Part shown: positions 2,673 through 58,792 of the stretch, piece after piece
Position numbering within the stretch: position 1 is the stretch's first letter
Layout of the letters: each line of letters begins with the position of its first letter
Origin: a virus
Reading direction: 5' to 3' (one strand)
Length of the DNA stretch: 62,274 nt
Virus record (IMG/VR): IMGVR_UViG_3300037419_000445
Made by a program: the position numbers and the translations under genes
Notes under the pieces: model-generated
What the model was told of the DNA's origin: nothing
What the model saw: only the letters and a program-made list of their open reading frames with translations
Database searches by the model: none

Positions 2673-2705
2673 TTTAAAATTCCCTCTTTTTACGCAATAC
2701 GATAG

Positions 2706-2718: not shown

Positions 2719-2739
2719 TTAATTTTGCGCCGCGTCATG

Positions 2740-7458: not shown

Positions 7459-8256
7459 ATGGCTATTTCATTAGGTTCGCTTAAGTCGACGAAGAAACAG
7501 GCGCAGGAGCGTCCCCCCATCCTGACGATCTACGGCGTAGACGGCGTTGGCAAGACTACGCTGGCTTCGGAATTCCCTTCGCCTGTTTACATCAGCACGG
7601 CAGGCGAGCGGGCTCCGTCAGACATCGACCTTCCTACGCCAGGTGTAGTAACGACGATTGACGATTTGTGGGACATCGTTGGCGAGTTGCTTGCTGGCGA
7701 GCACGAATTCAAGACTGTCATCATCGACAGCCTCGATGGACTCGAGCCGCTGATCTGGAAACGGACTTGCGCCCGTATTGGGGCAACGTCGATTGACGAC
7801 AGTAGCGCTGGATCTGTGGCTGCGTATGGTCGCGGATACCGTGAGGCCGACGTGGAGTGGAATGAACTAATTGACGCACTCAACGACTTGGTTGAGGCCG
7901 GCATGACGGTGGTTCTGCTTGCTCACCCCGGCATCGTGACGTTCAACTCGCCAATTTCAGATCCTTATTCTCGATACGAAATTAAACTTCACAAGCGCGG
8001 GGCCGCCCTCATCCGCGAGAAGTCGGACGTCGTGGCCTTCGTTAATTATCGGGTGACGCTGGTGAAGGCTGACCCGAAGAATCCGAAGTCTCACACCCAC
8101 GGCGAAGGCAAGGAACGCATCATCCACCTTTCCGAGAACGCTGGCTTCGTTGCTAAGTCGCGTTTTCCAACGCCGGACTCCATCAAGTACGTCAAAGGCA
8201 AGGGCTATTCTGAACTAGCCAAGTACTTCCCGCATGTGAGTGGGGAGGCGGCGTGA
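7459..8256 (+). CDS. Sak4-like RecA-fold ATPase (AAA_24-type recombination protein)
   Basis: Walker A is IYGVDGVGKTTLA and Walker B-like is VIIDSLD. The gene sits next to a DUF669-like gene, as in Sak4 modules. Confidence 0.75.
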   Translation: MAISLGSLKSTKKQAQERPPILTIYGVDGVGKTTLASEFPSPVYISTAGERAPSDIDLPTPGVVTTIDDLWDIVGELLAGEHEFKTVIIDSLDGLEPLIWKRTCARIGATSIDDSSAGSVAAYGRGYREADVEWNELIDALNDLVEAGMTVVLLAHPGIVTFNSPISDPYSRYEIKLHKRGAALIREKSDVVAFVNYRVTLVKADPKNPKSHTHGEGKERIIHLSENAGFVAKSRFPTPDSIKYVKGKGYSELAKYFPHVSGEAA

Positions 8257-8571: not shown

Positions 8572-9144
8572 ATGGCACAACTTGGGACTAAATTTAACGC
8601 GCAAGAGCATGATACCGAGCAGCGTGATTACGAGAACCTGCCGGAAGGAATCTACAAGCTTGAGGTTACCGAGGCCGATGTTGCTGCTACCAAAAAGGGT
8701 GACGGCACGCTTCTGAAACTGCGCTACGGCGTGATTGAGCCGGAAGAGTATAAGGGCCGACTTATCTTCGGAAACATCACGCTCGAAAACCCGAACGCTC
8801 AGGCCCAGGAGATCGGCCAGAAGCAGCTCGCGAGCCTGTGCCGTGCGATCGGCCTGTCCGAGATCGAGGACAGCGACGAGCTGAAATTCCAGAGCTTCAC
8901 CGCGAAGGTTGGCTTGTCGAAGCGACGTGAAGTGGCCGGGACGACTTATGAGCCTCGCAACGAGGTGAAGCGGTACTACTTCCCCGACGCAGACGACATG
9001 CCTGAAATCGGCGTGATCGCTGCTGCACCTAAACCCGCCAACGATAACCGTCCTGCAAGCGGCGACGCCCGCACGACGCAGAACGGTGGCGCGGCGGCAA
9101 CTACTGCGGCGGGTGGCAAGAGCCGGCCTTGGGGTCGCAAGTAA
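8572..9144 (+). CDS. DUF669-like protein (putative phage ssDNA-binding protein)
   Basis: LPEGIYKLEVTEADV...GTLLKLRYGVIEPEEYKGRLIF pattern, adjacent to Sak4. The disordered C-tail carries PANDNRP (9037-9048). Confidence 0.65.
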   Translation: MAQLGTKFNAQEHDTEQRDYENLPEGIYKLEVTEADVAATKKGDGTLLKLRYGVIEPEEYKGRLIFGNITLENPNAQAQEIGQKQLASLCRAIGLSEIEDSDELKFQSFTAKVGLSKRREVAGTTYEPRNEVKRYYFPDADDMPEIGVIAAAPKPANDNRPASGDARTTQNGGAAATTAAGGKSRPWGRK

Positions 9145-10324: not shown

Positions 10325-11377
10325 ATGACCCTCTCTATTCAACGCGCCGATCTGGCGCGAATCCTTTCGCTCGCCACCAAAGCAACCGAGAGCCGCAATA
10401 CCATTCCGATTTTGGCCAATGTGCTGCTGATTGCGGACGGCAGCAATCTGCAGGTTATCGGCACCGACCTCGATATTGAATACAGCGCAAGTGCGCCATG
10501 CTCTGGCGAGCAGGGCAGCACCACGGTCGACGCGCGCCGGTTGGCCGACATCGCCAAGCGGTTGTCTGGCGATACGGTAACGCTAGAATTGAAGAACGGC
10601 GCGCTGGTGGTCAAATCCGGCCGTTCGCGCTTTAGCCTGCCTACCTTGGCGGTTGAAGACTTCCCGCGCCTCGATAGTGGCGTGTTCGATGCCGAGTTTA
10701 AGATTGATTTGGCCTCACTGGTCGCGCCGGTTAAGTTTGCAATGTCGTCGGAGCCGGCTCGGTATTACCTCAACGGCGTTTACTTGCACGAAGCAGAAGG
10801 CCAGTTGCGCGCGGTCGCCACTGACGGACACCGCTTGTCGCACAACAGCGTGGCGCACCCGATGCCAACCGCGCCCGGCGTCATTATTCCCAGCAAAACT
10901 GTTGGTCTTATCCCGGCTGGCGTTATCGACGTTGGGCTGTCGAAAAACAAGGTGCGCCTCGCCACTGCCGACACCATCATTGTGTCGAAGCTGATCGATG
11001 GCACGTTCCCAGATTACGTTCGGGTCATTCCCCATGGCAATGACAAGCAACTGACCGTTAGCCGCAAGGAGTTAGCGAGTGCAGTTAGCCGCGTGGCGTC
11101 CATTGCGTCAGAACGCAGCCGAGCGGCTAAGTTCTCGTTGGCCGGCGACAACATCGCAATATCGATGACGTCGGACGAGGGCGCAGCCCGAGAGGACGTG
11201 CCTGCAACATACAGCGCCGAGCCGTTGGAGATTGGGTTCAACAGCGCATACGTGGGGGACGTGTTGGGCGCGCTGACTGGCGATGAAATCACAGTGTCGC
11301 TGGGTGACCCAGGTTCGCCTGCCTTGTTTCGTGGGGCCGGCGAAGGACAAATCGTTTTGATGCCGATGAGGGTATGA
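10325..11377 (+). CDS. dnaN: DNA polymerase III beta subunit (sliding clamp), phage-encoded
   Basis: LSIQRADLARILSLATKATESRNTIPILANVLLIADGSNLQVIGTDLDIE...FPDYVRVIP...LMPMRV gives full-length DnaN architecture. Confidence 0.9.
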   Translation: MTLSIQRADLARILSLATKATESRNTIPILANVLLIADGSNLQVIGTDLDIEYSASAPCSGEQGSTTVDARRLADIAKRLSGDTVTLELKNGALVVKSGRSRFSLPTLAVEDFPRLDSGVFDAEFKIDLASLVAPVKFAMSSEPARYYLNGVYLHEAEGQLRAVATDGHRLSHNSVAHPMPTAPGVIIPSKTVGLIPAGVIDVGLSKNKVRLATADTIIVSKLIDGTFPDYVRVIPHGNDKQLTVSRKELASAVSRVASIASERSRAAKFSLAGDNIAISMTSDEGAAREDVPATYSAEPLEIGFNSAYVGDVLGALTGDEITVSLGDPGSPALFRGAGEGQIVLMPMRV

Positions 11378-11380
11378 CGC

Positions 11381-11707
11381 ATGCCGTGGCCACCAGAAGA
11401 TGGATACCCGTACATGCCCGCGAACGGCACTGAAGGAGAAATCTTTCAGGACGGATGGTGTGTGCATTGCGCGCGAGATGCGGCGTTCAGGAAATCATAC
11501 GAGGAAACAAGCGGCAATCCAGACTGTGACGGATGCTCAATTCTTGGCGCGTCGCTGTGTGGTGAACAACCCAAAGAGTGGTTCTGGCGAAAGGGCGAGC
11601 CCCACTGTTCGGCATACACCGAAGACCCGAACTGTCCGGTGGGATGCCCGGAAACGTTGGAAATGTTCCGCTCGGATGATCGAGAAGTGATGGGGAGGGC
11701 GGCGTGA
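11381..11707 (+). CDS. Cys-rich hypothetical protein
   Basis: PANGTEGEIFQDGWCVHCARD...CDGCSILG...CPVGCPE. Confidence 0.55.
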   Translation: MPWPPEDGYPYMPANGTEGEIFQDGWCVHCARDAAFRKSYEETSGNPDCDGCSILGASLCGEQPKEWFWRKGEPHCSAYTEDPNCPVGCPETLEMFRSDDREVMGRAA

Positions 11708-11997
11708 GCGAGACACCGAGCGCGAGACGGCGAAAAGGACGCGAAGCCTACTATCGCGGCGGAAACCCGAACGACCATAATCCGTATCAATTTAATTCTG
11801 GGGTTTGTAGCCAGAGGATTGATTGGCTTGAGGGTTGGCAAGAAGCCTCAGCCGCGGATGCAGAAAATATTAAGTTAGAAGCCGCGAGAGACGAATTGCG
11901 CGACTTGCCCATATCTCTCGCCATCGACGCTGCACAGACGGACGATGACGTGAAGGAAATCCTGCGGCGCATCGCAGAGCATGTTGGGATGGAATAA
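11704..11997 (+). CDS. Rmf-like domain protein (tentative)
   Basis: GREAYYRGGNP..NPYQFNSGVCSQRIDWLEGWQEA resembles the ribosome-modulation-factor motif. Confidence 0.4.
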   Translation: MSETPSARRRKGREAYYRGGNPNDHNPYQFNSGVCSQRIDWLEGWQEASAADAENIKLEAARDELRDLPISLAIDAAQTDDDVKEILRRIAEHVGME

Positions 11998-12212
11998 TGT
12001 CCACCATCACAATCAACTGGCTATCCGACTCCTACGACGGCTGCGAGACTTGCGGTTCGTCGTGGGCAGAAGGTGCGCGTGTGTATGTAGACGGCAAGCT
12101 TGAGCTTGACCTTGAACCAACTGCGCATTGCCACTCGGGCACGCATTACGATCAGCAAGACGTTTACGATCGCTTGCTACGCCATCTCGGGCATACCGTG
12201 GAGCATGGGTAA
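11997..12212 (+). CDS. hypothetical protein
   Basis: 71-aa ORF with a TAATG overlap. Confidence 0.45.
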   Translation: MSTITINWLSDSYDGCETCGSSWAEGARVYVDGKLELDLEPTAHCHSGTHYDQQDVYDRLLRHLGHTVEHG

Positions 12213-13175
12213 GTGGCACCACTTCCGCAGGTAATTAGTCCAACGCTCAAAGCCGTGCGCCGTGCATTGGAGTCTGGTCACGACGATTGGGAGTCTGTCG
12301 GCGTGCCTGCCGGTGACATCGGAGTTGAGTGCGACAGGGCCATCTGGTTCTCGTTCCGCCGGGCGTCTCCGAAGGAGGAAATCAACTGGAAGACTCGGCG
12401 CATCTTTGAACGAGGCAATATCGAGGAGCCCCGCTTACTAGATCTGCTGCGGTCTATTGGTTGCACGGTATGGGGCGAGCAAGACCGCGTTCGGGCTGTC
12501 GGCGGACATCTCCGCGGAAAGATAGATGGGCGCGGGCTTGGAATTCTGGAGGCGCCGTCCAAAGAGCACGTCATTGAGTGCAAGTCTGCCAAGCAAGAGA
12601 AATTCGCGCCAGTTAAGAAGAATGGCGTGAAAATCGCTATGCCACTGCATTACGCCACCTTCCAGTTTTATATGCACGGGCTCGGTATCGATCGCGTTTT
12701 CTACATGATGTCGAATAAGAACGACGAGGATTTGCACTTTGAGCGCGTGCCTTACGATGCAGACTTCGCCATTCGAGCAGTCGCTAGGATTGAACGCATC
12801 GTGAATATGCCAAACCCACCTTCGCGGTTGTGTACTAAGCGTGACGACTTCCGCGGGATGTTCTGCCGGCAGCAAGAGGTTTGCTGGGGAGAGCGCAAGC
12901 CTCGAGCTCATTGCAGAACGTGTATCCATTCCACGCCACTGATGGACGGCAACGCTGGGTGGGACTGTTCGCGCTGGCAAAAGCCGTTGTCGCTTGAAGA
13001 GCAGGACGCTGGGTGCCCTGCGCATTTGTTTATCCCGCAAACGTTAGTTGGGTACGAGCAAGTGGACGCTGACGAAGAAGCTGAGACGATTACGTATCGG
13101 CGTGAGAGCGACGGTAAAACGTGGGTTGATGGCGCGGCGAACGACAACGACGGCGAGAAGGAGAATGCGGCGTGA
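12213..13175 (+). CDS. PD-(D/E)XK nuclease (Cas4/RecB-like exonuclease) with a C-terminal Cys cluster
   Basis: GKIDGRGL...HVIECKSAK is the D...E-x-K core. The Cys cluster is CTKRDDFRGMFCRQQEVC...CRTC...C...C. The C-tail carries AANDND (13137-13148). Confidence 0.65.
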   Translation: MAPLPQVISPTLKAVRRALESGHDDWESVGVPAGDIGVECDRAIWFSFRRASPKEEINWKTRRIFERGNIEEPRLLDLLRSIGCTVWGEQDRVRAVGGHLRGKIDGRGLGILEAPSKEHVIECKSAKQEKFAPVKKNGVKIAMPLHYATFQFYMHGLGIDRVFYMMSNKNDEDLHFERVPYDADFAIRAVARIERIVNMPNPPSRLCTKRDDFRGMFCRQQEVCWGERKPRAHCRTCIHSTPLMDGNAGWDCSRWQKPLSLEEQDAGCPAHLFIPQTLVGYEQVDADEEAETITYRRESDGKTWVDGAANDNDGEKENAA

Positions 13176-13399
13176 ATATTGAACCGTACCAGTCGACTGC
13201 TCTGCAGATTATGAAACTGGCGAATGAACAAGCAGACGCCACCAAACTAGCATTTGACGCGCTCATTGAGATTGACCGAATCTGCCGTACCCCAACCTCG
13301 GCCGGAGAAAAGGCTGGTCGGCACTTTCAGCGAGACTTCGACGCAATCCGTAGGCTTACTGCTCCGTTCTGCGCCCCCTCCCACCCGGTGGCAGCATGA
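13172..13399 (+). CDS. hypothetical protein
   Basis: 75-aa ORF with a GTGA overlap. Confidence 0.45.
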   Translation: MNIEPYQSTALQIMKLANEQADATKLAFDALIEIDRICRTPTSAGEKAGRHFQRDFDAIRRLTAPFCAPSHPVAA

Positions 13400-13917
13400 C
13401 CAAAGCCCGCACCCACCCGCACGCCAATGATAATAGGCCAGCTTGGTTCGACGCACTTCTGGTGCAGTACATGCCGTTCCTGCATCGAAAGTGTACCGAC
13501 CAAGCCAAGGGAGTCGACCGCGAAGACCTGGCGCAGGAGGCGATGAGGTACATCCTCGACTATTGGTACAGGTTCCGCAGCGATGGAATTTTCACATCGT
13601 GGGTTACGCTGATGGTGAGTGAGGCGCGCAGAGATATGATGCTGCGCCATGACAAGGGCGCAAGAGCCAAGGAGTCTGTAGCGGTGCTGCAATCATACTC
13701 GCCAGCTTCGCAGGAGAGTGCAGCCATGTTGTCAGAGACGTCCGATCGATTGGGTGACGCGGCACCACTAGCTGCAATGATCGGCGCTGGCTTTAGCCAA
13801 GCTGAGATCGGCGCCGCCACTGGTGTGAGCATTTTTACTGTTGAGCGTCGCGTCAAGGCGATGCGCGGGCTGCTGGCCGCCAACGAGAACCGAAAGTCAG
13901 TTCGGAAGGCTGGTTGA
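13396..13917 (+). CDS. sigma-70 family (ECF-like) RNA polymerase sigma factor
   Basis: Region 2-like is EDLAQEAMRYILDYWYRFRSDGIFTSWV. Region 4 HTH is GFSQAEIGAATGVSIFTVERRVKAMRGLL. The N-terminus carries HANDNRPAW (13423-13434). Confidence 0.7.
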   Translation: MTKARTHPHANDNRPAWFDALLVQYMPFLHRKCTDQAKGVDREDLAQEAMRYILDYWYRFRSDGIFTSWVTLMVSEARRDMMLRHDKGARAKESVAVLQSYSPASQESAAMLSETSDRLGDAAPLAAMIGAGFSQAEIGAATGVSIFTVERRVKAMRGLLAANENRKSVRKAG

Positions 13918-14262
13918 ATGCGATTGGTGGTGACTGGAGGGCGAGACTACAGCGACACAGCAGCGGCATTCGCTGCGCTGGATGATCTACACGCGTGCAA
14001 ACCAATTACAGTACTAATTCAAGGCGAGGCTCGTGGGTTAGATGCACGCGCAAAGAATTGGGCATTTCGGCGCGGTGTTCCCTGCGCCAGCTTCGCAGCG
14101 CAGTGGGATAAATACGACAAAGACGCTGGCGGAATACGGAATCAACAAATGATTGATGAAGGAAAGCCGGACTACGGATTGGTTTTCCCCGGTGGGTATG
14201 GGACTGCGGATATGCGGCGAAGGCTGGTTGCTGCGGGAATACCGTTTGAGGATGTGAAGTGA
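13918..14262 (+). CDS. DUF2493 / SLOG-family (YspA-like) protein
   Basis: RLVVTGGRDY...VLIQGEARGLDARAKNWA...AGGIRNQQMI...VFPGGYGTADM. Confidence 0.6.
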   Translation: MRLVVTGGRDYSDTAAAFAALDDLHACKPITVLIQGEARGLDARAKNWAFRRGVPCASFAAQWDKYDKDAGGIRNQQMIDEGKPDYGLVFPGGYGTADMRRRLVAAGIPFEDVK

Positions 14263-15995
14263 TGCCTCTTCGTTATTACCAGAAGGAATCGCTTAAGGCG
14301 GTGTTTGACTATTGGGATAAGCATCCCGGCCACCCTCTTGTCGATATGGCTACTGGAGTTGGAAAGTCTATCACGCAGGCAACGCTGGCCATGGACCTTA
14401 TTAAGGGCTGGCCGGATATGCGTGTGATGTCGGCAACGCACGTTGTTGAATTGATTGAAGCTAATTTCAAGGAGCTTATTGGTATCTGGCCGTTTGCCCC
14501 AGCGGGTATTTGTGCGGCGTCGCTTGGACAGCGTGACTTCAGATCGCAAATCATATTCGCGCAACTGCAGACTGTCTGGAATAAGGCTGCGCAGATTGGA
14601 CACATCGATGTTCTAATCATCGATGAGGTGCATCTTGTGCCTGCAAAAGCTAACACGATGTATCGCAAGCTTATTGATGCCTTGCTGGTCATAAATCCAG
14701 ACATGAAGATTGTCGGTTATAGCGCCACGCTTTACCGGCTTGATAGCGGGCGACTGGATGAAGGTGACGACAAGCTATTCGATCAGGTTGTTTACGAGTA
14801 CGGCATTCGTCGCGGCATTGAAGATGGCTACCTCTGCCCGATAACGTCTAAACCGACAGGAACCAAGTACGACCTATCCGGTGTTGGAAAGTCGATGGGG
14901 GACTATAAGCTGAGCGATTATCGCGCTGCGGTTGATACCGAGATATTAAACAAGCGCGTGGTCGAAGAGGTCATGGACGTCGAAGGCCACAGGAAGTCGG
15001 CGCTGTTCTTCTGTCGTGGGGTGGAGCACGCCACACATATGAGGGATATGGTGCAGGCGGCTGGCCGCACTTGTGAGATCGTTCACGGCGGGACGCCATC
15101 AACGGTGCGGCGTAAGTTAATCGCAGCCTTGAAGGCCGGTGAAATATGGGCGCTTAGCAACGACAATGTATTATCGACTGGAACCAATATCCCGGGTGTG
15201 GATCTAATTGTTGACACCTATAAAACTCTTTCTGCCGGCCGTTATGCGCAGCGCGTAGGTCGTGGCACGCGAGTTATCTACCCTCACGGGTTTGACCCAG
15301 AAGCAGTCGACGCAACTGAAAGGCGTGCGGCTATCGCATCGGGTATCAAGCCAAATTGTCGTTACATGGACTTTGCCGGAAACATCGATGCTCACGGTCC
15401 AGTGGACATGATTAATCCTAAGAAGCCCGGCAAGGGTGAGGGACAAGCACCGATCAAAATCTGCCCGACGTGCGAGGAAATTAATCACGCGAGTGTCCGT
15501 GTGTGCTCGTGCTGTGGATTCGAATTTGAATTTAACACCGCCCCGAAGTTCACTGCCCGTGCAAGCGACGCACCAATTATATCGAGCGACACGCCAAACT
15601 GGCGCACTGTTACAGGTCGCCATTTCAGGGAACACCCGGCCAAGCCTGGGAAGCCCCCGAGCGTGCGTGTGGATTACAAGCTCGGCATGAATGTTCAGAA
15701 GGATTACTTGTGCCCTCAACATGGCGGGCGCGCTGCGGCGAAGGCTTGTAGGTATTGGAAGGACCACGCTGGGAAGTTTCCATATCCAAAAACGACTGCG
15801 GAATGGCTAGACCGGGTAGGAGAACTTCTTACGACTGTAGAGATTGCGACTGCGCCAGATAAGGACAATCCGCGCTACATTAACGTAAGGGATTGGCGCG
15901 CTGGTTCTGCTACGCAAGTTGCCGAACCAGCAAACGACAACTGGAAGCCGCTGATGGCGGCGGGTGATGATTGGGCGGAGGATATACCGTTTTGA
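14259..15995 (+). CDS. SF2 DEAD/DEAH-box DNA helicase with a Zn ribbon
   Basis: Motif I is DMATGVGKS and motif II is IIDEVH. Further motifs are SATLYR and QRVGRGTR. The ribbon is CPTCEE...CSCCG. The C-tail is PANDNWKP...DDWAEDIPF. Confidence 0.85.
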   Translation: MMPLRYYQKESLKAVFDYWDKHPGHPLVDMATGVGKSITQATLAMDLIKGWPDMRVMSATHVVELIEANFKELIGIWPFAPAGICAASLGQRDFRSQIIFAQLQTVWNKAAQIGHIDVLIIDEVHLVPAKANTMYRKLIDALLVINPDMKIVGYSATLYRLDSGRLDEGDDKLFDQVVYEYGIRRGIEDGYLCPITSKPTGTKYDLSGVGKSMGDYKLSDYRAAVDTEILNKRVVEEVMDVEGHRKSALFFCRGVEHATHMRDMVQAAGRTCEIVHGGTPSTVRRKLIAALKAGEIWALSNDNVLSTGTNIPGVDLIVDTYKTLSAGRYAQRVGRGTRVIYPHGFDPEAVDATERRAAIASGIKPNCRYMDFAGNIDAHGPVDMINPKKPGKGEGQAPIKICPTCEEINHASVRVCSCCGFEFEFNTAPKFTARASDAPIISSDTPNWRTVTGRHFREHPAKPGKPPSVRVDYKLGMNVQKDYLCPQHGGRAAAKACRYWKDHAGKFPYPKTTAEWLDRVGELLTTVEIATAPDKDNPRYINVRDWRAGSATQVAEPANDNWKPLMAAGDDWAEDIPF

Positions 15996-16222
15996 TTTAC
16001 CTATACGTGACATTGCGAGAGCGACTTTATGAAGCGTCAATCAACGGCAACGAGCTTGCGCACGAAGCCGTGGAGGAAATCAACAGACTGGATAAGATCA
16101 TTAAAGACCTAACTTCAAGCGCAGTACCAGCATTGCTGGCGTCAAAAGCAGGGATGCTGCTTGGTGACGAATTCACAGAGCGACTTGAGAAATCTGTTGC
16201 TAATGCGAGAAAGTGCGCGTGA
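15992..16222 (+). CDS. hypothetical coiled-coil protein
   Basis: The track ORF is 15971-16222. The TTG at 15992 follows GGAGGA and overlaps the helicase stop as TTGA. Confidence 0.4.
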   Translation: MIYLYVTLRERLYEASINGNELAHEAVEEINRLDKIIKDLTSSAVPALLASKAGMLLGDEFTERLEKSVANARKCA

Positions 16223-16782
16223 TGGCAAAAATAGGTTACGCAGACCCTCCGTACATCGGTTGCGCTCACCTCTACAAAGACCACCCGGATTTTGCCGGAG
16301 AGGTAGATCATGCCGCGTTAATCGAGAGGCTGGAGTCTGAATATGATGGATGGGTGCTTCATGCTTCTGCAACACCTACCAGCATGGCCGTCCTTGCGCC
16401 TCTGGTAGCCAAGACATCGGCGCGCTGGTGTTCATGGGTGAAGGGCTTTGCAGCATTCAAACGCAACGTTCCGGTAGCCTACGCATGGGAGCCGGTCATT
16501 ATCAAACCTGCTCGCAAGCCGGTTGTCAGCAAGCGGCAGGTGAACCGCGACTGGATTCAAGAAAGCATCACCCTCAAGCGCGGCCTGACAGGCGCGAAGC
16601 CGGAAGCCGTCTGCCATTGGGCTTTCGAACTATCAGCTGCGCGACCTGACGACGAACTAGACGACATGTTTCCGGGCACTGGCGCAGTAGGTCGCGCGTG
16701 GAAAACATGGCAGGGCAAGTTCACGCTTCCTGCCAACGATAACTCTCCTTTATTCGCTACTGCGCAGCGTAGCGCGCAATAG
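16222..16782 (+). CDS. minimal beta-class DNA methyltransferase (N6A/N4C type)
   Basis: The N-terminus has GYADPPY and the C-terminus has DDMFPGTGAVG, which is the beta-class order of motif IV before motif I. The tail carries PANDNSPLF. Confidence 0.65.
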   Translation: MAKIGYADPPYIGCAHLYKDHPDFAGEVDHAALIERLESEYDGWVLHASATPTSMAVLAPLVAKTSARWCSWVKGFAAFKRNVPVAYAWEPVIIKPARKPVVSKRQVNRDWIQESITLKRGLTGAKPEAVCHWAFELSAARPDDELDDMFPGTGAVGRAWKTWQGKFTLPANDNSPLFATAQRSAQ

Positions 16783-16839
16783 CAGCAGTGCGCGGCCAAG
16801 TGCCGAGATACCGCGTGCAACTCCCGCTGTGGAGCAAGC

Positions 16840-17091
16840 ATGACTAACAATAAGCCACAAGACGGCAAACAATCCCGCCGCGCCAGCCTAGCCGAGAGCC
16901 TGGCCAACATCGCAATCGGCTATTGCGTAGCAATAGCGGCACAAGTCGTCATCTTTCCTTTGTTCGGGATTCATATCGGTGCAGGTGAGCATGCTGCCAT
17001 CGGCGCGCTATTCACGGCTGTGTCGCTCGTTCGCAGCTATGCGTTGAGGCGGTTGTTTGAGACGTTGCGGGTTAGTGGGGTGCTTTCGTAA
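16840..17091 (+). CDS. small membrane protein
   Basis: SLANIAIGYCVAIAAQVVIFPLFGIHIG...AIGALFTAVSLV. Confidence 0.5.
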   Translation: MTNNKPQDGKQSRRASLAESLANIAIGYCVAIAAQVVIFPLFGIHIGAGEHAAIGALFTAVSLVRSYALRRLFETLRVSGVLS

Positions 17092-18527
17092 TGACTATCG
17101 AACCGATCATCATTGGCGATTGCACACTGTACCATGGCGACAACCGCGACGTGCTTCGGCAGTTGCCGGACAACAGCATCGATAGTTGTGTCACGGACCC
17201 TCCTTACGCGCTCGTGTCCATTGTAAAGCGGTTTGGAGGGGCTAACTCTGCACCAGCCAAAGGTAACGATGCATATATGCGCGCGTCCCGTGGATTCATG
17301 AATGCCACCTGGGATACGGGCGAGGTTGCGTTCAGCGAAGAGTTTTGGGCCGAAGTGTTGCGCGTGCTGAAACCGGGCGGTCATGTCGCCGCGTTCGGTG
17401 CGTCGCGCGGCTATCATCGCATGGCGTGCGCGATTGAGGATGCGGGTTTTGAAATCCGCGACTCGCTGATGTGGATTTATGGGACGGGGTTTCCCAAGTC
17501 GCATGATGTGAGCAAGGGGATTGATAAAGCCGCAGGCGCGGAACGTGAAGTGATCGGCCAGATAGTGCGCGGCGACGTTGAGGCTGCGAAGCGAAACGGC
17601 GTCACGATGGCCGCAGCCGATGCGAACAAGAACAATAAGGCAATCTTTGGCTATGGTGTCGAACAGATCACCGCTCCCGCCACCGACGCCGCCCGCCAAT
17701 GGGAAGGATGGGGCACAGCCATTAAGCCCGCCTTTGAACCAATCGTTCTCGCGCGCAAGCCGCTGTCCGAAGGCACGGTCGCCGCGAATGTGCTGCGTTG
17801 GGGCACGGGTGCGCTGAATATTGGGGCTACAAGGATTCCGGCCAACGGCGATAAGCTTGGCGGTGGGATGGTCAACAAAGGTCGCCCGAAGGCTGGCGAA
17901 GGCTGGGACCGCCCGTGGATGCACGATCCAGAGGTAACGGAACGAAAGAAGGGTGAAGCCGCCGCAAAGGTTGCAGAAGCGGAAGCGGCCGGCCGCTGGC
18001 CCGCCAACGTGGTGCACGACGGCTCGGATGAAGTGGTGGGGCTGTTTCCACACTCCAAGTCCGGCGCATTGACGGCGGATCAACAAAAGAACGGAGGGTT
18101 TGCCGGGACTGTTCATTGTTATGGGAAAGCCAAGACTGGCGGAACGAACGAGTACCGGGCCAATGAAGGCTCCGCAGCCCGCTTCTTCTACAGCGCCAAG
18201 GCCAGCAAAGCAGATCGCGCTGGTTCAAAACATCCGACCGTCAAGCCCGTCGCACTCATGGAATGGCTCGCCGCTCTCATTACACCGCCCGGCGGGACTG
18301 TGCTCGACCCGTTTGCCGGTAGCGGCACGACCGGCGCTGCGGCTGTGCGGAAGGGGTTTAAGGCCGTCCTTTGCGAGCGCGAAGACGAGTACGTCGAGGA
18401 CATCAAGCGGCGCATGTCCGCAGCATTGCCAGTTGCCGCTGCGGTAGCAGCGCAACCAGCAAACGACAATGAGCCTTCACCACAGTCCTCGCCATCACAA
18501 CTCGACATTTTCGGCGCAGCCGCATGA
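17091..18527 (+). CDS. beta-class DNA methyltransferase (N6A/N4C) with a large insertion
   Basis: Motifs are SCVTDPPY, HPTVKP and DPFAGSGTTG. The C-tail is QPANDNEPSPQSSPSQLDIFGAAA. Confidence 0.85.
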   Translation: MTIEPIIIGDCTLYHGDNRDVLRQLPDNSIDSCVTDPPYALVSIVKRFGGANSAPAKGNDAYMRASRGFMNATWDTGEVAFSEEFWAEVLRVLKPGGHVAAFGASRGYHRMACAIEDAGFEIRDSLMWIYGTGFPKSHDVSKGIDKAAGAEREVIGQIVRGDVEAAKRNGVTMAAADANKNNKAIFGYGVEQITAPATDAARQWEGWGTAIKPAFEPIVLARKPLSEGTVAANVLRWGTGALNIGATRIPANGDKLGGGMVNKGRPKAGEGWDRPWMHDPEVTERKKGEAAAKVAEAEAAGRWPANVVHDGSDEVVGLFPHSKSGALTADQQKNGGFAGTVHCYGKAKTGGTNEYRANEGSAARFFYSAKASKADRAGSKHPTVKPVALMEWLAALITPPGGTVLDPFAGSGTTGAAAVRKGFKAVLCEREDEYVEDIKRRMSAALPVAAAVAAQPANDNEPSPQSSPSQLDIFGAAA

Positions 18528-18868
18528 CCGACCTCATCGGCACATGCGCAATCTGCAAACGCAGGCACGCGAACATCGGCTGGGCTGCGTCGGAGCGCCA
18601 CCCAGTTAAATGGGAGTGCAAGGAATGCCTGCAATTACCAATCGAACAAGTTAAGAGGTTTCACCACATGGCGCGCAAAGCATTAGACCGGTTCGAGGAA
18701 CAGGCGCTGGAGGAGGGCGGAAATGCTGGTGGCTCGTTCCTGGACGAGATCGGGAAGACGGACCTCGCAGCGCTAGACGACTACGAATGGCGCGAGTTTC
18801 TGCGGCGCGTTCTGGTTGGTTACGCGGATGGGATGCGGGAGATTGTTGGCCGTGAGGTGCCGTTTTGA
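18524..18868 (+). CDS. hypothetical protein with an N-terminal CxxC...CxxC
   Basis: CAICKRRH...WECKEC in a 114-aa ORF. Confidence 0.55.
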   Translation: MTDLIGTCAICKRRHANIGWAASERHPVKWECKECLQLPIEQVKRFHHMARKALDRFEEQALEEGGNAGGSFLDEIGKTDLAALDDYEWREFLRRVLVGYADGMREIVGREVPF

Positions 18869-19659
18869 TGAGCGTTGAATTGCACAACGGTGATTGCTTG
18901 GACATCCTGCCGACGCTTGCGCCCGGCAGTGTGGATTTGATCCTGTGCGATTTGCCGTATGGGACGACGGCCTGCAAATGGGACGAGATCATTCCACTCG
19001 ATAGAATGTGGGAGCAGTATTGGCGTGTTGCCAAGCCAAGTGCTGCTATTGTGTTGACCTCGCAGCAGCCATTCACGGCAAAGCTTACGATGAGCCAAGC
19101 GAATTTCTTTCGTTACAACTGGGTGTGGGACAAGGGGTATTCAACTGGGTTTGCCAACGCAAACAAAATGCCGATGAGGGGTTTCGAGGACGTCTTGGTG
19201 TTTTACCGCAAATTGCCGACGTATAACCCTCAAGGTCTTGTAGATATCCCTCCAAAAATAAAGAAGCGCGCGTCTGGCGGCGGTGGCGAGGTTATGGGTA
19301 AGAACGGAACCGAGGGCAAGGAGTACGTTTCAACAAAAACCAACTACCCAAACGGAATCATCACCACAAAGAAGGAAGGCAAAACCGTACACCCCACCCA
19401 AAAACCAGTTGCGTTGATGGAATACCTAATCCGCACCTATACCAATCCGGGCGATATCGTCCTAGACAATTGCATGGGCTCAGGCACCACTGGCGTTGCG
19501 GCAGTCAACACCGGACGACGGTTTATCGGCATTGAACGTGACGCGGACTATTTCGCGATTGCGCGCAAGCGCATTGGCGAAGCGCAACCCGTACCCGCAC
19601 CAACACCGGCCAACGACAACATGCCGCCATCTGCAGACTTGTTCGGAGAAGCCGCATGA
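18865..19659 (+). CDS. beta-class DNA adenine methyltransferase (CcrM-like architecture)
   Basis: Motifs are ILCDLPYG, HPTQKP and DNCMGSGTTG. The C-tail is PTPANDNMPPSADLFGEAA. Confidence 0.85.
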   Translation: MMSVELHNGDCLDILPTLAPGSVDLILCDLPYGTTACKWDEIIPLDRMWEQYWRVAKPSAAIVLTSQQPFTAKLTMSQANFFRYNWVWDKGYSTGFANANKMPMRGFEDVLVFYRKLPTYNPQGLVDIPPKIKKRASGGGGEVMGKNGTEGKEYVSTKTNYPNGIITTKKEGKTVHPTQKPVALMEYLIRTYTNPGDIVLDNCMGSGTTGVAAVNTGRRFIGIERDADYFAIARKRIGEAQPVPAPTPANDNMPPSADLFGEAA

Positions 19660-21944
19660 CTCCATTTGAACTCGCAAATTTCTACATCTCTCAGGGCCTT
19701 AAGGTTTTTCCGTGCCGTTCACGCGCGGAAGAAACCGTTGACCAATACACCGGCGAAGTAACAACGCTAGGCGAGAAAACTCCCCTGCTTTCGAATGGCT
19801 TCAAGGGTGCCACGCGCTTCCAACATATCGTCAAGCGCTGGTTCACCGATTGGCCTGACGCTGCCGTTGGTTTGCCTACCGGCAAAGACGCGGGATTCTT
19901 TGTGTTGGATATCGACAACAAGCCTGGTGGTGCAAACGGCTTTGAATGGCTGGCGGAGATGGAAGCGGAGCATGGCCCACTGCCCGAGACAGCGCGCGTT
20001 ATGTCGCCAAATGGCGGCATGCACGTCTATTTCAAATACGTAGAAGGCACACGCAACCGCGGCAATCTAGGCGCTGGCGTGGACTTGCGTTCTGAAGGTG
20101 GGTATGTCTGCGCCGCCGGCAGCGTTATGTCGGACGGACGGGCTTATAAGTGGACGGTGGATACAGGCGGCATTCCGCCTATCGCGGATGCCCCCGCATG
20201 GCTACTCGACCTCGTCGTTCGCAAGCAGGCGCCCGCCTCCACCTGCACGCCATCTGGCCAAGTAACCACAGGGAGCGTTACTAACAGCGCCTATGTCAAC
20301 GCTGCGGTTGATCGCGAACTAGCCGACTTGGCTGGCGCACCTATGGGCAGTCGCAATAATAGCCTCAACGACGCCGCGTTCTGCCTTGGCACGTTCGTTG
20401 GCGCCGGCGCGTTGCCAGAGTCAGAAGCCCGCGCCTTGCTGCAGGACGTGGCGCGCGGATGGGGCAGGGATTGGGCTCGCTGTGCCAAGACGATCGAAAA
20501 CGGTCTTGCGGCCGGACAGCGTAGTCCGCGCGAAATCCCATCGGCCGAACACGACAACGATAACACGCGCCTCGTCGACATTACCAAGATGATTGAGAAC
20601 GGGCTGCGGAAGGCGAAGGAACGCCAACCTGTGCCCGCCGATAAACCGGACATGAAACCGGCAAAAGAACCGGCAAAATCCACTGCGTCTGACAGCCAAA
20701 CGTCAGAAAAACCTACACAATCTTCGGACACAGAACCGGCCAACAAACCGGCATTGGATTCCACCCACCCCGCCGCGCAAGACGACAAACCAGCCATCCT
20801 TGCCACCGCGTTCAAGTGGCAAGACCCGCGCAAGCTCCCAAGGCGCGAGTTCGCCTTCGGCACCCACTATATCCGCAAATATGTCTCCGTGACGGTCGCG
20901 CCGGGTGGGTTGGGCAAGACTGCCAATAGCATTGTGGAATCCCTCGCCATGGTGTCTGGCAAACCTCTTGCCGGCACAAAGCCGGCCGAGCGGCTGCGGG
21001 TCTGGTTTTTCAATTCGGAGGATCCCCGAGATGAGCTGGACCGCCGCATCATGGCGGCGTGCATCCGCTATAAGCTCACACAAGACGACGTGCAGGGCTT
21101 GTTCCTCGATACGGGGCGCGAGCAGGAACTTGTCATCGCGGTTGAGGACAAGAAAGCCGGCGTACGCATCGTGCAGCCGATCGTCGAGGCTGTCGTCGAA
21201 CAAATTCAGAAGCACAAGATTGACGTTATGATCGTCGATCCATTCGTGTCGACACATCAGGTCAACGAGAACGACAACGGCGCGATCGACAAGGTTGCCA
21301 AGCTTTGGGCGCAGATCGCGGACCATACCAACTGCGCTATTGATATCGTGCACCACCTGCGCAAGCTGGCTGATAGGGAAGCCACAGTGGAAGACGCACG
21401 CGGCGCGGTCTCGCTGATCGGGGCTGCGCGCTCGGTGCGGATTTTGAACCGAATGTCGGCAAATCAAGCGAAAGAGGCCGGCCTTCCAGAGCAGGATAGG
21501 TACGGCCATTTCTCAATCACCCACGGCAAGGCCAATCTTACAGCAATGTCCAGCAAACTGGACTGGCGTCGTCTGGAGGGCGTCCCTTTGGGCAACGGGC
21601 GCGGGCTTACCAAGCCCCAGGACTTCGCTCCTGTGGTGGTTGAGTGGCAGTGGCCGTCTATGGAAAAACAGCTTGAAGCGGTGCCTGACGACGCCCTGAC
21701 TGCCATTAAAAAGAGGATCGGCGGGGGTGACTATTGGGTAAGCGAGCAGTCAAAAACCAACTGGGCCGGCATCATCGTGGCTGACATCTTGAAGGTGGAT
21801 TTGGACGACAAAACAGAAAAGAACCGCATCGTCCGACTGCTCAAATTCTGGCAGAAAAGCGGCCACCTTACGACTGAATTGCGGCTGGACGAGCGCAGGA
21901 AACAGCGTAGCGCATACGCTCCGGTGTGGGGTGAAGCGGCGTAA
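19656..21944 (+). CDS. bifunctional primase-polymerase / RecA-fold (AAA_25, DnaB-like) helicase
   Basis: The prim-pol N-domain has GLKVFPC...GFKGAT...FFVLDIDNK. The PriCT-like segment is NSLNDAAFCLGTFVG. The C-terminal ATPase has VAPGGLGKT...VMIVDPF. Confidence 0.85.
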   Translation: MTPFELANFYISQGLKVFPCRSRAEETVDQYTGEVTTLGEKTPLLSNGFKGATRFQHIVKRWFTDWPDAAVGLPTGKDAGFFVLDIDNKPGGANGFEWLAEMEAEHGPLPETARVMSPNGGMHVYFKYVEGTRNRGNLGAGVDLRSEGGYVCAAGSVMSDGRAYKWTVDTGGIPPIADAPAWLLDLVVRKQAPASTCTPSGQVTTGSVTNSAYVNAAVDRELADLAGAPMGSRNNSLNDAAFCLGTFVGAGALPESEARALLQDVARGWGRDWARCAKTIENGLAAGQRSPREIPSAEHDNDNTRLVDITKMIENGLRKAKERQPVPADKPDMKPAKEPAKSTASDSQTSEKPTQSSDTEPANKPALDSTHPAAQDDKPAILATAFKWQDPRKLPRREFAFGTHYIRKYVSVTVAPGGLGKTANSIVESLAMVSGKPLAGTKPAERLRVWFFNSEDPRDELDRRIMAACIRYKLTQDDVQGLFLDTGREQELVIAVEDKKAGVRIVQPIVEAVVEQIQKHKIDVMIVDPFVSTHQVNENDNGAIDKVAKLWAQIADHTNCAIDIVHHLRKLADREATVEDARGAVSLIGAARSVRILNRMSANQAKEAGLPEQDRYGHFSITHGKANLTAMSSKLDWRRLEGVPLGNGRGLTKPQDFAPVVVEWQWPSMEKQLEAVPDDALTAIKKRIGGGDYWVSEQSKTNWAGIIVADILKVDLDDKTEKNRIVRLLKFWQKSGHLTTELRLDERRKQRSAYAPVWGEAA

Positions 21945-25137: not shown

Positions 25138-25833
25138 ATGGTGACCTTTCTGTGCGAGGAGATACCGGCAGCAGCGAACGATAATAAACCTTCGTGCTTA
25201 CGTTGCGGTACGTTGTTCGCGCCATCAATCGGCAAGAAGTACTGCTCTCGCAAGTGTAAGAAGTTGTCGAGCGCATCGCGCAATGGTCGCCATACGACTG
25301 CCCCTGAAAGATTATGTGAAGGGTGTGGGTCTGCCTTTAAGGGTAGGCCTAACGCGCACTACGCGGCCAGGTACTGTTCTAGGAAGTGCGCTGGGAATGG
25401 TGTAGTTCACGGCCAGTCAGATGGTAACGTCATAAAGATTGTCGCTGATCAGCGATATTGCCAACAGTGTGGCGGCGCGTTTAGGCCAGCAAACAATCGC
25501 AATAACGCGAAGTTCTGTGGCTCTATATGTGCCGAGGTAAATGCCAACGCTGTTGCTGGTGGTATCCGCCGAGCCCGCATGTATGGCGCCGCCAATGATA
25601 ACGTAGACCCGATCGCCGTATTTGAGCGTGATGGTTGGAAATGCAAGATGTGTGGGGTCGACACACCACGATACTTGCGTGGGACTGACAACCCTAATGC
25701 ACCTGAGATGGATCACGTTGTAGCGTTGGCATCTGGCGGTTCTCATACATACGAGAATGTCCAATGCTCATGCCTGAAGTGCAATCGCACGAAGGGCACT
25801 AAGTCGTTGGAATTGTTTATGCTTGCTTCATGA
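25138..25833 (+). CDS. HNH endonuclease with three N-terminal Zn-ribbon repeats
   Basis: The repeats are CLRCGTLF..YCSRKC, CEGCGSAF..YCSRKC and CQQCGGAF..FCGSIC. The HNH core is WKCKMCG...EMDHVVALASGGSHTYENVQCSCLKCNRTKG. It has two ANDN copies (25174-25185 and 25591-25602). Confidence 0.75.
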   Translation: MVTFLCEEIPAAANDNKPSCLRCGTLFAPSIGKKYCSRKCKKLSSASRNGRHTTAPERLCEGCGSAFKGRPNAHYAARYCSRKCAGNGVVHGQSDGNVIKIVADQRYCQQCGGAFRPANNRNNAKFCGSICAEVNANAVAGGIRRARMYGAANDNVDPIAVFERDGWKCKMCGVDTPRYLRGTDNPNAPEMDHVVALASGGSHTYENVQCSCLKCNRTKGTKSLELFMLAS

Positions 25834-53206: not shown

Positions 53207-53292
53207 TCCATTCCTCGCCGTCAACACGATAGGGGCGATCATGATTGTGCTTATTGCCGTGTACTTCCTTTTCCCAAAATGGCGGTGAACTG

Positions 53293-57793: not shown

Positions 57794-58792
57794 TTACCGA
57801 GCGTCTGCGGCAGTGTGCTGCCAGTCGGGATGATGGTGTCCATACGTCTTTTGAAACACCGTTATCGACATGCCGAGCGACTCTGCGGCCTCGTATGGAT
57901 CTACACGTTGACGCAGAAGGTGCGTTGCGCGCGAGTGACGCAACACATGTGGATGCACATCGTGAAGTTTGGATTCAGCGCGAGCTTTATTCCAGCCCTT
58001 AGCAACCCTCTCCACGCTCTTGCCGCGGTACTCCACGACGTATTTGGAGTCCGGTGACATACGACGCCAGCGCCGCAGATGGCCTATCAGGCGCCTTCCT
58101 ATGCGGACTGGCGGTGCTCGCTTCTTGGTCTGGGTGGTTCCGGGCCGCTGGCGGTAGAGAAGGCCGGCCATTAGGTCGATTTGGTCCCACTGCAACTTCA
58201 TGAGGACGGTGGCGCGACTGCCGGTGTACCAGCCAAGCAGGAAGAACCGTGCGATGTGCTCGCAGTCGGCCTGCCTACGGATATGGCGCAAGAACTTCGC
58301 GGCTTCGGGGATAGTAAGCCATCGCTGGCGCGGGAGTGGCTTTTCCGGTCGCTTTATCGTTGGTACGCGGATTGGGTGGTAGTTCTTGCTCCAATGCCTC
58401 AGGGCGGTCTCTAGGAAGCCCAGCTCACGGCGCACGGTGGTTTTACCGCCACGGTGCTTGGTGTATTTCTTGACGTTGTCGGCGGTGATTTCTGAGGCCC
58501 GCTTATCCCCCCACCACTTGCCGAGGCGAACGAGGTCGTTGCTTATGGAATCTTCCGATGGAAGCCCTTCGACATGGTCCCGCTGATAGGCAAGTATAAC
58601 ATCGCAAATTTTCGGGTTTGGGTCGCCGTCCGGCCTGTGATTTCTAGCTATGTATTCCGCAAGAGCTTTTTGCGCTGCGCTATCCTCGCCAAGAGAATAT
58701 CCTGTGCGGATACGTTTGTTTCCGTCGACGATCGTCCACGAATTTCTTGACTTGTCCTGCCAGAGGCGCGGGCCTGAACTTCTACGCGGCAT
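57794..58792 (-). CDS. int: tyrosine recombinase (phage integrase)
   Basis: RLWQDKSRNSWTIVDG at the N-terminus. The catalytic region is HVLRHSRATHLLRQRVDPYEAAESLGMSITVFQKTYGHH. Confidence 0.9.
   Translation of the reverse strand: MPRRSSGPRLWQDKSRNSWTIVDGNKRIRTGYSLGEDSAAQKALAEYIARNHRPDGDPNPKICDVILAYQRDHVEGLPSEDSISNDLVRLGKWWGDKRASEITADNVKKYTKHRGGKTTVRRELGFLETALRHWSKNYHPIRVPTIKRPEKPLPRQRWLTIPEAAKFLRHIRRQADCEHIARFFLLGWYTGSRATVLMKLQWDQIDLMAGLLYRQRPGTTQTKKRAPPVRIGRRLIGHLRRWRRMSPDSKYVVEYRGKSVERVAKGWNKARAESKLHDVHPHVLRHSRATHLLRQRVDPYEAAESLGMSITVFQKTYGHHHPDWQHTAADAR

Follow-up and report, generated by a model that had tools for sequence, protein, structure and literature searches.

The DNA considered here, referred to throughout as the window, is the whole 62,274-nucleotide stretch of virus record IMGVR_UViG_3300037419_000445, and its gene content, as judged by domain searches, looks like that of a complete temperate phage. 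A long early operon runs rightward and includes a replication module with the gene order Sak4-like ATPase, DUF669 protein resembling single-stranded DNA-binding protein (SSB), beta sliding clamp (DnaN), Cas4 exonuclease, extracytoplasmic function (ECF)-like sigma factor, YAcAr/SLOG protein, superfamily 2 (SF2) helicase, three DNA methyltransferases (MT1, MT2 and MT3) and Prim-Pol/AAA_25 primase, with DUF7220 and DUF6511 genes interspersed among the three methyltransferase genes. Terminase, portal, major head protein and the tail module lie at 26-49 kb. The subject of this analysis is the C-terminal tails of the methyltransferases, their possible binding to the clamp, and their likeness to the SsrA tag that marks proteins for degradation by ClpXP. 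The features concerned are as follows.

10325..11377, plus strand: beta sliding clamp DnaN, 350 amino acids (Pfam, TIGR00663, PDB alignments)
16213..16782, plus strand: MT1, small beta-class amino-methyltransferase with DPPY...FPGTG (fold match, family conservation)
17091..18527, plus strand: MT2, CcrM-like N6/N4 methyltransferase, 478 amino acids (PF01555, E 7e-27; NF050803, partial)
18459..18470, plus strand: ANDN in the MT2 tail, a look-alike of the start of the SsrA tag
18498..18512, plus strand: QLDIF in MT2, a pentapeptide like the clamp-binding motif, four residues ahead of the terminal Ala-Ala (AA)
18865..19659, plus strand: MT3, CcrM-like N6/N4 methyltransferase, 263-264 amino acids (PF01555, E 1e-27)
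19609..19620, plus strand: ANDN in the MT3 tail
19630..19644, plus strand: SADLF in MT3, a pentapeptide like the clamp-binding motif, four residues ahead of the terminal AA

Megablast of the region returned no DNA-level relative among deposited phages. Relatives of the module, found by protein, are Sinorhizobium phage 16-3 and its kin, the window DnaN being 48-51% identical to those of 16-3 and AP-16-3 and the window primase 33-44% identical to those of 16-3 and RHph_X2_26. Since these are its protein relatives and one uncultured relative falls in a Bradyrhizobiaceae genome bin, the host is taken to be an alpha-proteobacterium, probably of the Rhizobiales, and the region is probably the replication module of a 16-3-like temperate phage. 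The lineage comparison used twelve uncultured relatives (L001-L010, L012 and L013). Rhizobium phage RHph_X2_26 (L011; MW960037, record 20000-68522), which has the helicase, primase, Cas4 and DUF669 module in common and shares the host genus of 16-3, served as a control, and phage 16-3 itself (L134, Rhizobium phage 16-3; NC_011103, record 22643-60195) was considered with its RefSeq gene calls.

An earlier note on this DNA had described a full-length phage DnaN at 10325-11377, and the domain evidence bears it out: PF00712, PF02767 and PF02768 all score above their cut-offs (E 3e-35, 2e-22 and 4e-23) and TIGR00663 dnaN gives 249.8 bits against a cut-off of 137.65. The closest solved structures are the alpha-proteobacterial clamps 6deg (E 6e-70) and 5wce (E 4e-66), which align end to end. 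Conserved across clamp alignments are ATDGHRL, FPDYxRVIP, GFNxxY and a C-terminal LMPMRV-COOH, and in the phage protein ATDGHRL, FPDYVRVIP, GFNSAY and LMPMRV align to the same stretches of both structures. Going by established E. coli structures, we take these four stretches to line the hydrophobic peptide-binding pocket between domains II and III, and the alignments support the retention of the canonical pocket in the phage clamp, which carries no ANDN itself and has LMPMRV as its C-terminus. Loading onto DNA as a ring dimer by the host clamp loader is assumed; there is no clamp-loader gene in the window. Domain searches found no replicative polymerase among the large window open reading frames (ORFs) tested, in line with what had been reported before, the Prim-Pol/AAA_25 protein at 19656-21944 being the sole polymerase-like gene of the window. 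DnaN orthologues are present in the L001-L013 set and in phage 16-3, and no DnaN annotation was found in RHph_X2_26 within bases 20000-68522.

That there are three beta-class methyltransferases also stands, with the qualification that only MT2 and MT3 are recognisable from family profiles. Both match PF01555 and are CcrM-like. The beta class is marked by a catalytic (D/N/S)PP(Y/F/W) motif lying N-terminal to the FxGxG motif that binds SAM, and DLPYG and MGSGTT are invariant over 40 homologues. MT1 has no sequence-family match in Pfam, PHROG, NCBIfam or PDB sequences; DPPY and then FPGxG are invariant in its family, which has over 1300 representatives, and its structural model (predicted local distance difference test (pLDDT) 90) matches M.MboIIA, M1.HpyAVI, CcrM and RsrI in Foldseek (probability 1.0, template modelling (TM) score 0.5-0.56), so that it is a beta-class methyltransferase by modelled fold only. 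Two start sites need correction, the likely start of MT1 being the ATG at 16222 and that of MT3 being 18868, as in the 263-residue database protein P0001. In the model of MT3 a folded domain (residues 1-240, pLDDT above 90) is followed by a tail (241-264) of coil without secondary structure (pLDDT 54-58). The MT1 tail is PANDNSPLFATAQRSAQ, with ANDN at 16732-16743 (16732-16758 translates to ANDNSPLFA), that of MT2 is QPANDNEPSPQSSPSQLDIFGAAA, with orthologue tails ending ANDNQPSPQTDLFAA and ANDNTPQADLFAA, and that of MT3 is TPANDNMPPSADLFGEAA; an identical SADLFGEAA tail occurs in L001 and P0011. No restriction-enzyme domain was found adjoining the methyltransferases or among the window ORFs tested (small ORFs partly scanned), which agrees with the earlier observation that no cognate restriction endonuclease is present.

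Translation places QLDIF and SADLF exactly at the coordinates given for them by the earlier note, in tails that are predicted to be disordered. Compared with the clamp-motif consensus (QL[SD]LF or Qx[DE][LM]F), QLDIF is a fit in which Ile takes the place of Leu, and SADLF lacks the Gln. The tail of MT1 (PANDNSPLF) had been listed alongside these two and does not belong with them, as SPLF is no fit to the conserved motif and the wider MT1 family is without such tails. QxDIF occurs once in the whole window, and QLDIF is the sole Qx[DSEN][LMI]F in its ORFs. When the motif was defined strictly as [QST]x[DSN][LMI]F it was present in eight of nine N6_N4 methyltransferase tails from related loci, against 4 of 319 other ORFs (Fisher p about 1e-12), and when defined more loosely as [DSNE][LMI]F in the last 40 residues it was present in every N6_N4 methyltransferase called there. 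Overall, 12 of 328 ORF tails carry the strict motif, compared with 1.4 +/- 1.2 shuffled tails. Of the four exceptions, two also turn out to be methyltransferases: one is of the MT-A70 kind and ends TPDMFAASTQVDAA, and the other is an N6_N4 enzyme of the SPPF type that has SSDLF and VGDLF. One of the only two strict-motif proteins that are not methyltransferases is that at 9585-10004 of L013, in which TNDLF stands just ahead of the ANDN tail; this protein and that at 16011-16637 of L012, both of unassigned function, have the tail ...ANDNGKLEVAA in common.

Among the 120 closest MT3 homologues the tails diverge and the element is kept, and many combine ANDN, xDLF and AA (tails include ...HTDLFGAAA, ...PADLFSERAA, ...QNDMFGVRNAA, ...PQSDLFAA and ...QDDLFSASA). 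The methyltransferase motifs of relatives include QADLF, QTDLF, QGDMF, QPDMF and QLSLF, three relatives carry two copies in tandem (QGDMF...x[AS][SN]LF), and the 16-3 methyltransferase p097 ends QPDMFIAANDNVPAATQFAVGNLFGDAA. The element may follow ANDN or precede it (SMDLFAANDN..., QGDMF...ASLFANDN...AA), and it persists in homologues that have neither ANDN nor an AA end (RQLSLF, KERGLF and ADSLFD at the C-terminus, the first, from a distant homologue, being a perfect match to the clamp-motif consensus), while C5 methyltransferases, nucleases, sigma factors and other tailed proteins have ANDN...AA and no DLF. The motif is therefore an independent module tied to the amino-methyltransferases. 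Motifs as degenerate as these can be functional, since the phage Mu proteins MuC (QHDLF, QPDLF) and Mor (only DLF) bind or act via the host clamp (PMC12867686). Comparison of sequences thus supports a clamp-binding role for the methyltransferase tails, and the tethering proposed by the earlier note gains from the conserved, methyltransferase-specific motif and the intact pocket; what finds no support is the idea that the tails are simply clamp tethers, or that MT1 fits the pattern.

The second component of the tails is the tetrapeptide ANDN. The earlier note had treated PANDN as incidental, and it turns out to be spread over the proteome, on nucleases, the helicase, the sigma factor, the SSB-like protein and others. 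Six-frame translation of the window gives 13 copies, every one in the frame of a long ORF, and ANDN is the most frequent tetrapeptide both of the window ORFs and of the lineage, where 73 copies are observed against 0.59 expected from composition and the permutations NADN and DNAN occur 0-1 times. The carriers in the window are the SSB-like protein, the Cas4 exonuclease, the sigma factor, the helicase, the three methyltransferases, an HNH endonuclease, a DNA repair exonuclease, a small early-left protein and two further proteins. Per 100 kb the lineage has 21-54 copies, whereas alpha-proteobacterial chromosomal DNA, sampled over 669 kb, has 1.9. Phage 16-3 has 15 copies in 37.5 kb, and 13 of its 70 coding sequences (CDS) contain ANDN. 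The extended consensus is [AP]-A-N-D-N-x-P, and half of the copies lie no more than 30 residues from a C-terminus. Because its codons (GCN AAY GAY AAY) are ordinary, tracking the codon usage of the genome, and the flanking nucleotides are not conserved, selection acts on the peptide and not on the DNA. A repeat or promoter at the DNA level as the meaning of PANDN was ruled out on the same grounds, synonymous positions varying and flanks carrying no information.

The third component is the terminal Ala-Ala. It closes 16 of the 89 window ORFs, 79 of 312 ORFs in the lineage (about 25%, where about 4, or about 1%, would be expected) and 16 of the 70 CDS of phage 16-3 (30 of the 70 end in Ala), against 3 of 80 in the control RHph_X2_26. 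That phage also has no ANDN in 48.5 kb and has the host genus of 16-3, and the tag look-alike is therefore a property of the lineage and not something imposed by the host. Proteins with a C-terminal ANDN are strongly enriched for AA ends (odds ratio 8.5, p 2e-10). Counted from ANDN onward, tails are most often 11-16 residues long, and AA closes 43 of the 61 distinct ones, those of MT2 and MT3 among them and that of MT1 not. The terminal G[EA]AA, left by the earlier note as incidental, hence belongs to a proteome-wide [AP]ANDNxP...AA-COOH tail architecture. It could be argued that these features are functionless by-products of gene packing and composition, a Shine-Dalgarno sequence with an ATGA or GTGA overlap forcing G-E-A-A in Ala/Pro-rich, low-complexity protein. 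Several AA ends do overlap the ribosome-binding site and start of the next gene, as in GGAGAAGCCGCATGA at 19645-19659, and AA ends are commoner in genes with an ATGA/GTGA overlap (43%) than in those without (17%). Nevertheless AA also closes 35 of the 209 ORFs that have no overlap, the AA ends draw on every Ala codon and on all three stop codons, and RHph_X2_26 has overlaps and few AA ends. ANDN itself is placed ahead of any ribosome-binding site, is free to vary at its synonymous sites and shows an enrichment of more than 100-fold. Translational coupling was accordingly rejected as the full explanation of the AA ends, and the by-product explanation, which these statistics already contradict, is extremely improbable.

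What the architecture resembles is the tag that transfer-messenger RNA (tmRNA) adds to proteins. The SsrA tag of Caulobacter is AANDNFAEEFAVAA (PMC1233412) and that of A. tumefaciens ANDNNAKEYALAA (PMC12493166), and ARAGORN found that permuted tmRNAs at 16 soil-metagenome loci encode ANDNYAPVAQAA or ANDNFAPVAQAA. Tags of alpha-proteobacteria run from an initial ANDN to a final AA over 12-13 residues, and close phage look-alikes are ANDNAPAKAGAA, ANDNTPAQAGEAA, ANDNFPIEVAA and ANDNAPQRVAA. At least 120 soil contigs (L014-L133) carry sequence coding for the tag ANDN[YF]APVAQAA, which indicates that it is uniform in soil alpha-proteobacteria, and all 16 of those checked are permuted (two-piece) tmRNA genes. 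No tmRNA or tRNA was found in the window and the phage tails are encoded by the ORFs themselves; they are mimics and not SsrA tags. As far as sequence can tell, the tail architecture is a copy of the alpha-proteobacterial SsrA tag, and since it is also proteome-wide the methyltransferase tails are not simply clamp tethers. The earlier reading could be kept unchanged, with the tails as simple clamp tethers for replication-coupled anti-restriction and ANDN and AA without function, and the conserved clamp motif and intact clamp pocket speak for it. It is very unlikely to be the whole story, however, as no other peptide feature of the lineage is as over-represented as ANDN and AA-COOH, and both are under selection at the peptide level and occur on many proteins that have no clamp motif.

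In the SsrA system the adaptor SspB binds the N-terminal part of the tag and ClpX binds the terminal Ala-Ala (review PMC9382460). ClpXP needs that terminal Ala-Ala and reads it weakly after Gly, Glu or polar residues, adaptors then being required (PMC10862746), and the phage tails ending ...GEAA, ...ENAA and ...RRAA match this situation. No SspB or ClpX domain was found among the window ORFs tested, of which the small ones were scanned only in part. Recognition of the ANDN part of the tag by SspB-alpha of alpha-proteobacteria is reported in work by Lessner and by Chien, both of 2007. We suggest, giving the proposal about an even chance of being right, that the methyltransferase tails are composites of short linear motifs that provide both clamp tethering and adaptor-dependent turnover by ClpXP, possibly in competition. 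The motif [QST]x[DSN][LMI]F (QLDIF, SADLF) would dock the methyltransferase on the sliding clamp of the phage or of the host, so that methylation followed the replication fork; the fit of the motif, the disorder of the tail, its methyltransferase-specific conservation and the intact clamp pocket are what lead us to infer this step. Sequence identity, spacing and the statistics above point to the other step, in which [AP]ANDNxP would copy the tag start bound by SspB and the terminal Ala-Ala the ClpX-binding end. Because the residues just ahead of AA are poor for ClpX alone, the tail would be an adaptor-dependent, tunable degron. Every tail that has both places the clamp-motif Phe in one of two ways, 2-6 residues from the C-terminus (DLFAA, DLFGEAA, DMFGVRNAA) or 0-4 residues ahead of ANDN (SLFANDN, DLFAANDN, DLFSGAANDN). 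Since one or other degron determinant is always 0-6 residues away from the clamp motif, binding to the clamp and to SspB or ClpX would probably be mutually exclusive. More speculatively, clamp-bound enzyme would be protected and free enzyme cleared.

A number of observations weigh against this composite proposal. MT1 has ANDN and neither an AA end nor a good clamp motif. Many of the methyltransferase motifs lack the consensus Gln (SADLF, TADMF, PASLF), and DLF is short and could bind some other partner. The residues ahead of AA (E, A, N, R and G) are poor determinants for ClpX. A few late proteins, such as the portal protein, end in AA or ANDN...AA, and their degradation seems costly, though assembly may bury the C-terminus of the portal. 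Some copies of ANDN are N-terminal or sit in internal linkers, where the logic of a C-terminal degron fails, and 33 of the 73 copies have Pro at +2, which was not seen in the natural tags checked.

The last two of these points would be accommodated if ANDN were instead a docking peptide for a phage hub (the clamp, the Sak4-like ATPase, the SSB-like protein or another) that builds a replication factory, the likeness to SsrA being a coincidence and the AA ends a separate matter. Such a hub would need no C-terminal degron at the N-termini of the sigma factor and of the 58648-58992 protein or in primase linkers, it would explain the extended ANDNxP, and it would suit the concentration of ANDN in early DNA-metabolism proteins, which make up 11 of the 12 carriers in the window. 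In addition, RHph_X2_26, the sole related phage examined without ANDN, has no annotated DnaN in bases 20000-68522, although this co-absence comes from a single genome. On the other hand, alpha-proteobacterial tags invariably start with this very tetrapeptide, which in the phages is strongly tied to an AA C-terminus at the spacing of natural tags. No hub candidate offering a polar pocket suited to the peptide was identified, and the pocket of the clamp binds hydrophobic motifs. We regard the hub as unlikely.

Somewhat less likely again is the possibility that xDLF is part of the degron or serves another interaction, as a hydrophobic enhancer for ClpX or SspB comparable to the EEF of the Caulobacter tag, and that the methyltransferases are not tethered to the clamp. 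It draws on a further point that weighs against the composite proposal: in tails of the type ...LFG[EA]AA the Phe lies five residues from the end, the site at which aromatic residues favour recognition by ClpXP in E. coli (PMC10862746). The Caulobacter tag likewise has acidic-acidic-Phe five residues from its end, and the many copies without Gln can be added to this side. Against it, the element is specific to the amino-methyltransferases and absent from about 40 other ANDN...AA tails, it stands upstream of ANDN in several enzymes, and it is retained in the homologues that lack both ANDN and AA, RQLSLF among them with its perfect consensus.

To return to the composite proposal, the same ANDN...AA code without a clamp motif would mark many other early proteins of the lineage. 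We offer only tentatively, and think it on the whole improbable, a broader picture in which a proteome-wide degron code copied from SsrA is fused on the amino-methyltransferases to a clamp motif, the clamp and SspB/ClpXP compete so that stability is gated by replication, and the tagged early proteins might saturate ClpXP and perturb the host cell cycle. The anti-restriction purpose put forward by the earlier note is one possible purpose of the methylation, the other being CcrM-like regulatory mimicry, as methyltransferases in the replication modules of sinorhizobial phages often copy the specificity of host CcrM and are thought to be regulatory (PMC5537653). Using proteolysis to restrain a CcrM-like activity would be sensible where the cell cycle reads GANTC methylation.

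The other tailed proteins of the window, together with genes mentioned for context, are given below.

1905-2738, minus strand: S24 repressor
7459..8256, plus strand: Sak4-like AAA_24 ATPase, ending HVSGEAA (Pfam; PHROG 124)
8572..9144, plus strand: DUF669 SSB-like protein, ANDN at 9037-9048 in a disordered C-terminal region (Pfam DUF669; PHROG SSB families)
12213..13175, plus strand: Cas4-domain exonuclease, ending GAANDNDGEKENAA, ANDN at 13137-13148 (PHROG 1990; orthologue tails)
13396..13917, plus strand: ECF-like sigma factor, ANDN at residues 10-13 (13423-13434) (family searches, orthologues)
13918-14262: YAcAr/SLOG protein
14259..15995, plus strand: SF2 helicase, tail EPANDNWKPLMAAGDDWAEDIPF, ANDN at 15930-15941 and EDIPF, like the SSB tip, at 15978-15992 (Pfam ResIII, Helicase_C)
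18524..18868, plus strand: DUF6511 protein between MT2 and MT3, ending REVPF (18854-18868) (Pfam; orthologues)
19656..21944, plus strand: Prim-Pol and AAA_25 primase/helicase, ending PVWGEAA (Pfam)
25138..25833, plus strand: HNH endonuclease, two ANDN, at 25174-25185 near the N-terminus and at 25591-25602
28168-29463: portal protein, ending PAAPKKAA
49508-50575, minus strand: Acyl_transf_3 gene (E 9e-28), beyond the tail-fibre genes and on the opposite strand
53245..54582, plus strand: DNA repair exonuclease, ending IAANDNEVRRAA, ANDN at 54550-54561 (PHROG 704)
57794-58792, minus strand: tyrosine integrase
58648..58992, minus strand: small early-left protein, starting MTRAANDNTPP, ANDN at 58969-58980

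Orthologues of several of these proteins carry the same features. One or two ANDN are found in the DUF669 orthologues of L006, L012, L013 and 16-3, the Cas4 exonuclease of the window, with AANDNDGEKENAA at its end, has the full SsrA-like tail without a clamp motif, and the repair exonuclease, which ends AANDNEVRRAA, has in 16-3 the orthologue p044, ending QAANDNVPASERRVA. The HNH endonuclease of L010 retains the N-terminal copy of ANDN, and 16-3 has MRVAANDNIKQDSPLRL at the place equivalent to the start of the early-left protein. Most primase orthologues end in AA (...VAA, ...RAA, ...QAA), and in L004, L006 and L013 the interdomain linker contains ANDN, for example PANDNEPDADPSPIVATAFKW. The portal proteins of L008 (18467-19774) and L003 (19055-20329) also end in AA, that of L008 with the full EPANDNSAHGDTPDTEEPKAA. 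The Acyl_transf_3 gene is typical of the O-antigen acetyltransferases of lysogenic conversion.

The sigma factor has ANDN at residues 10-13 in every relative and in L003, L005, L008, L009 and L010 also ends in a full ANDN...AA tag, the end of the window protein being a degenerate AANEN...KAG. Having two look-alikes of an adaptor site on so small a protein would fit an adaptor that is a dimer. There is no evident anti-sigma gene, a situation that recalls sigma-AntA.

A further recurrent end is Pro-Phe, which closes 13 ORFs of the lineage and ranks second among its C-terminal dipeptides. The helicase tail is conserved in all orthologues, ending ...DDWAEDIPF in the window and AANDNTPPPANDNRRNWEWELDDEVPF in the 16-3 helicase p088, and helicase and DUF6511 orthologues from the lineage, 16-3 and RHph_X2_26 all end in [DES][IV]PF or IPF. 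The C-terminal tip of SSB is DDDIPF, and the helicase and DUF6511 tails, ending D[IV]PF or EVPF, are like it; here, however, the tip is on proteins that are not SSBs, and the SSB-like DUF669 protein of the phage lacks such an end. The DUF669 protein of RHph_X2_26 has an internal DDDIPF. The Pro-Phe tail may be a third short linear motif, one that recruits host proteins interacting with SSB.

The ingredients of the composite proposal are all known. Among bacteria the clients of the clamp that use QL[SD]LF are DNA polymerase III alpha, polymerases II, IV and V, Hda and MutS/L, and the methyltransferase tails are like theirs in that a disordered segment presents a short pentapeptide, in many cases terminal, built on a [DS][LM]F core. 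MuC and Mor are phage proteins that couple a non-replicative process to replication via a clamp motif (PMC12867686). The present case differs in that the client would be a DNA methyltransferase and the phage brings its own clamp, and binding is predicted here. Recruitment of a methyltransferase to nascent DNA by a clamp-binding peptide is also seen in eukaryotes, where Dnmt1 is tethered to newly replicated DNA through its PCNA-interacting peptide (PIP) box and PCNA (PMC9690074). This is an analogy only, as the clamp family, the motif and the enzyme class are unrelated, Dnmt1 being a C5 cytosine enzyme and the phage enzymes beta-class amino-methyltransferases. Eukaryotes also have the PIP-degron read by CRL4-Cdt2, in which clamp binding triggers degradation. 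There too a clamp-binding peptide is fused to a degradation signal and stability is linked to clamp loading, but the geometry of the phage tails suggests the opposite outcome, with clamp binding protective.

The phage tails have the same (A)ANDN start and Ala-Ala end as the SsrA tag and a similar length of 11-16 residues; they differ in being gene-encoded, in the middle part with its Pro at +2, in the weaker ClpX end and in occurring also at N-terminal and internal positions. Genome-encoded C-terminal Ala-Ala degrons for ClpXP are known from CtrA of Caulobacter and from MuA. In Streptomyces the built-in AA-COOH of sigma-AntA, an orphan ECF sigma factor, controls the level of the protein, a parallel with the tagged sigma factor of the phage (PMC7142297). 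The engineered DAS+4 tag joins an SspB-binding module to a weak ClpX end (PMC9382460) and has the same two-module logic as the phage tails. Unlike these encoded degrons, the phage code is on a quarter of the proteins and includes a look-alike of the adaptor site. We know of no natural example of encoded AA degrons on such a scale.

The phiLM21 family study (Decewicz et al. 2017, PMC5537653) describes some methyltransferases with the CcrM-like specificity GANTC. These, like the enzymes of the window, are orphan N6-adenine methyltransferases in the replication module of temperate alpha-proteobacterial phages, and the study makes no mention of C-terminal motifs. In the literature searched, no methyltransferase of bacteria or phages was described as carrying a clamp motif, in keeping with the earlier note's remark that it was not aware of clamp tethering being described for phage methyltransferases. 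Nor did we find any prior description of SsrA look-alike tails on a quarter of the proteins of a phage lineage, or of such tails fused to a clamp motif.

A functional clamp motif would provide the first case of clamp-tethered DNA methylation in a prokaryote, and would explain both the presence of methyltransferases in phage replication modules and the possession of a clamp by a phage that has no polymerase. Phage 16-3 of Sinorhizobium meliloti, a classical phage amenable to genetics, shows these features, so that they can be tested directly. Should the ANDN...AA tails be real degrons for SspB and ClpXP, a whole phage lineage would be mimicking the quality-control tag of its hosts in order to time or limit its early proteins, which would represent a new layer in the control of lysis and lysogeny and a natural version of adaptor-dependent degron design. 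As ClpXP drives the cell cycle of alpha-proteobacteria, flooding it with tagged proteins could even be a device for host takeover.

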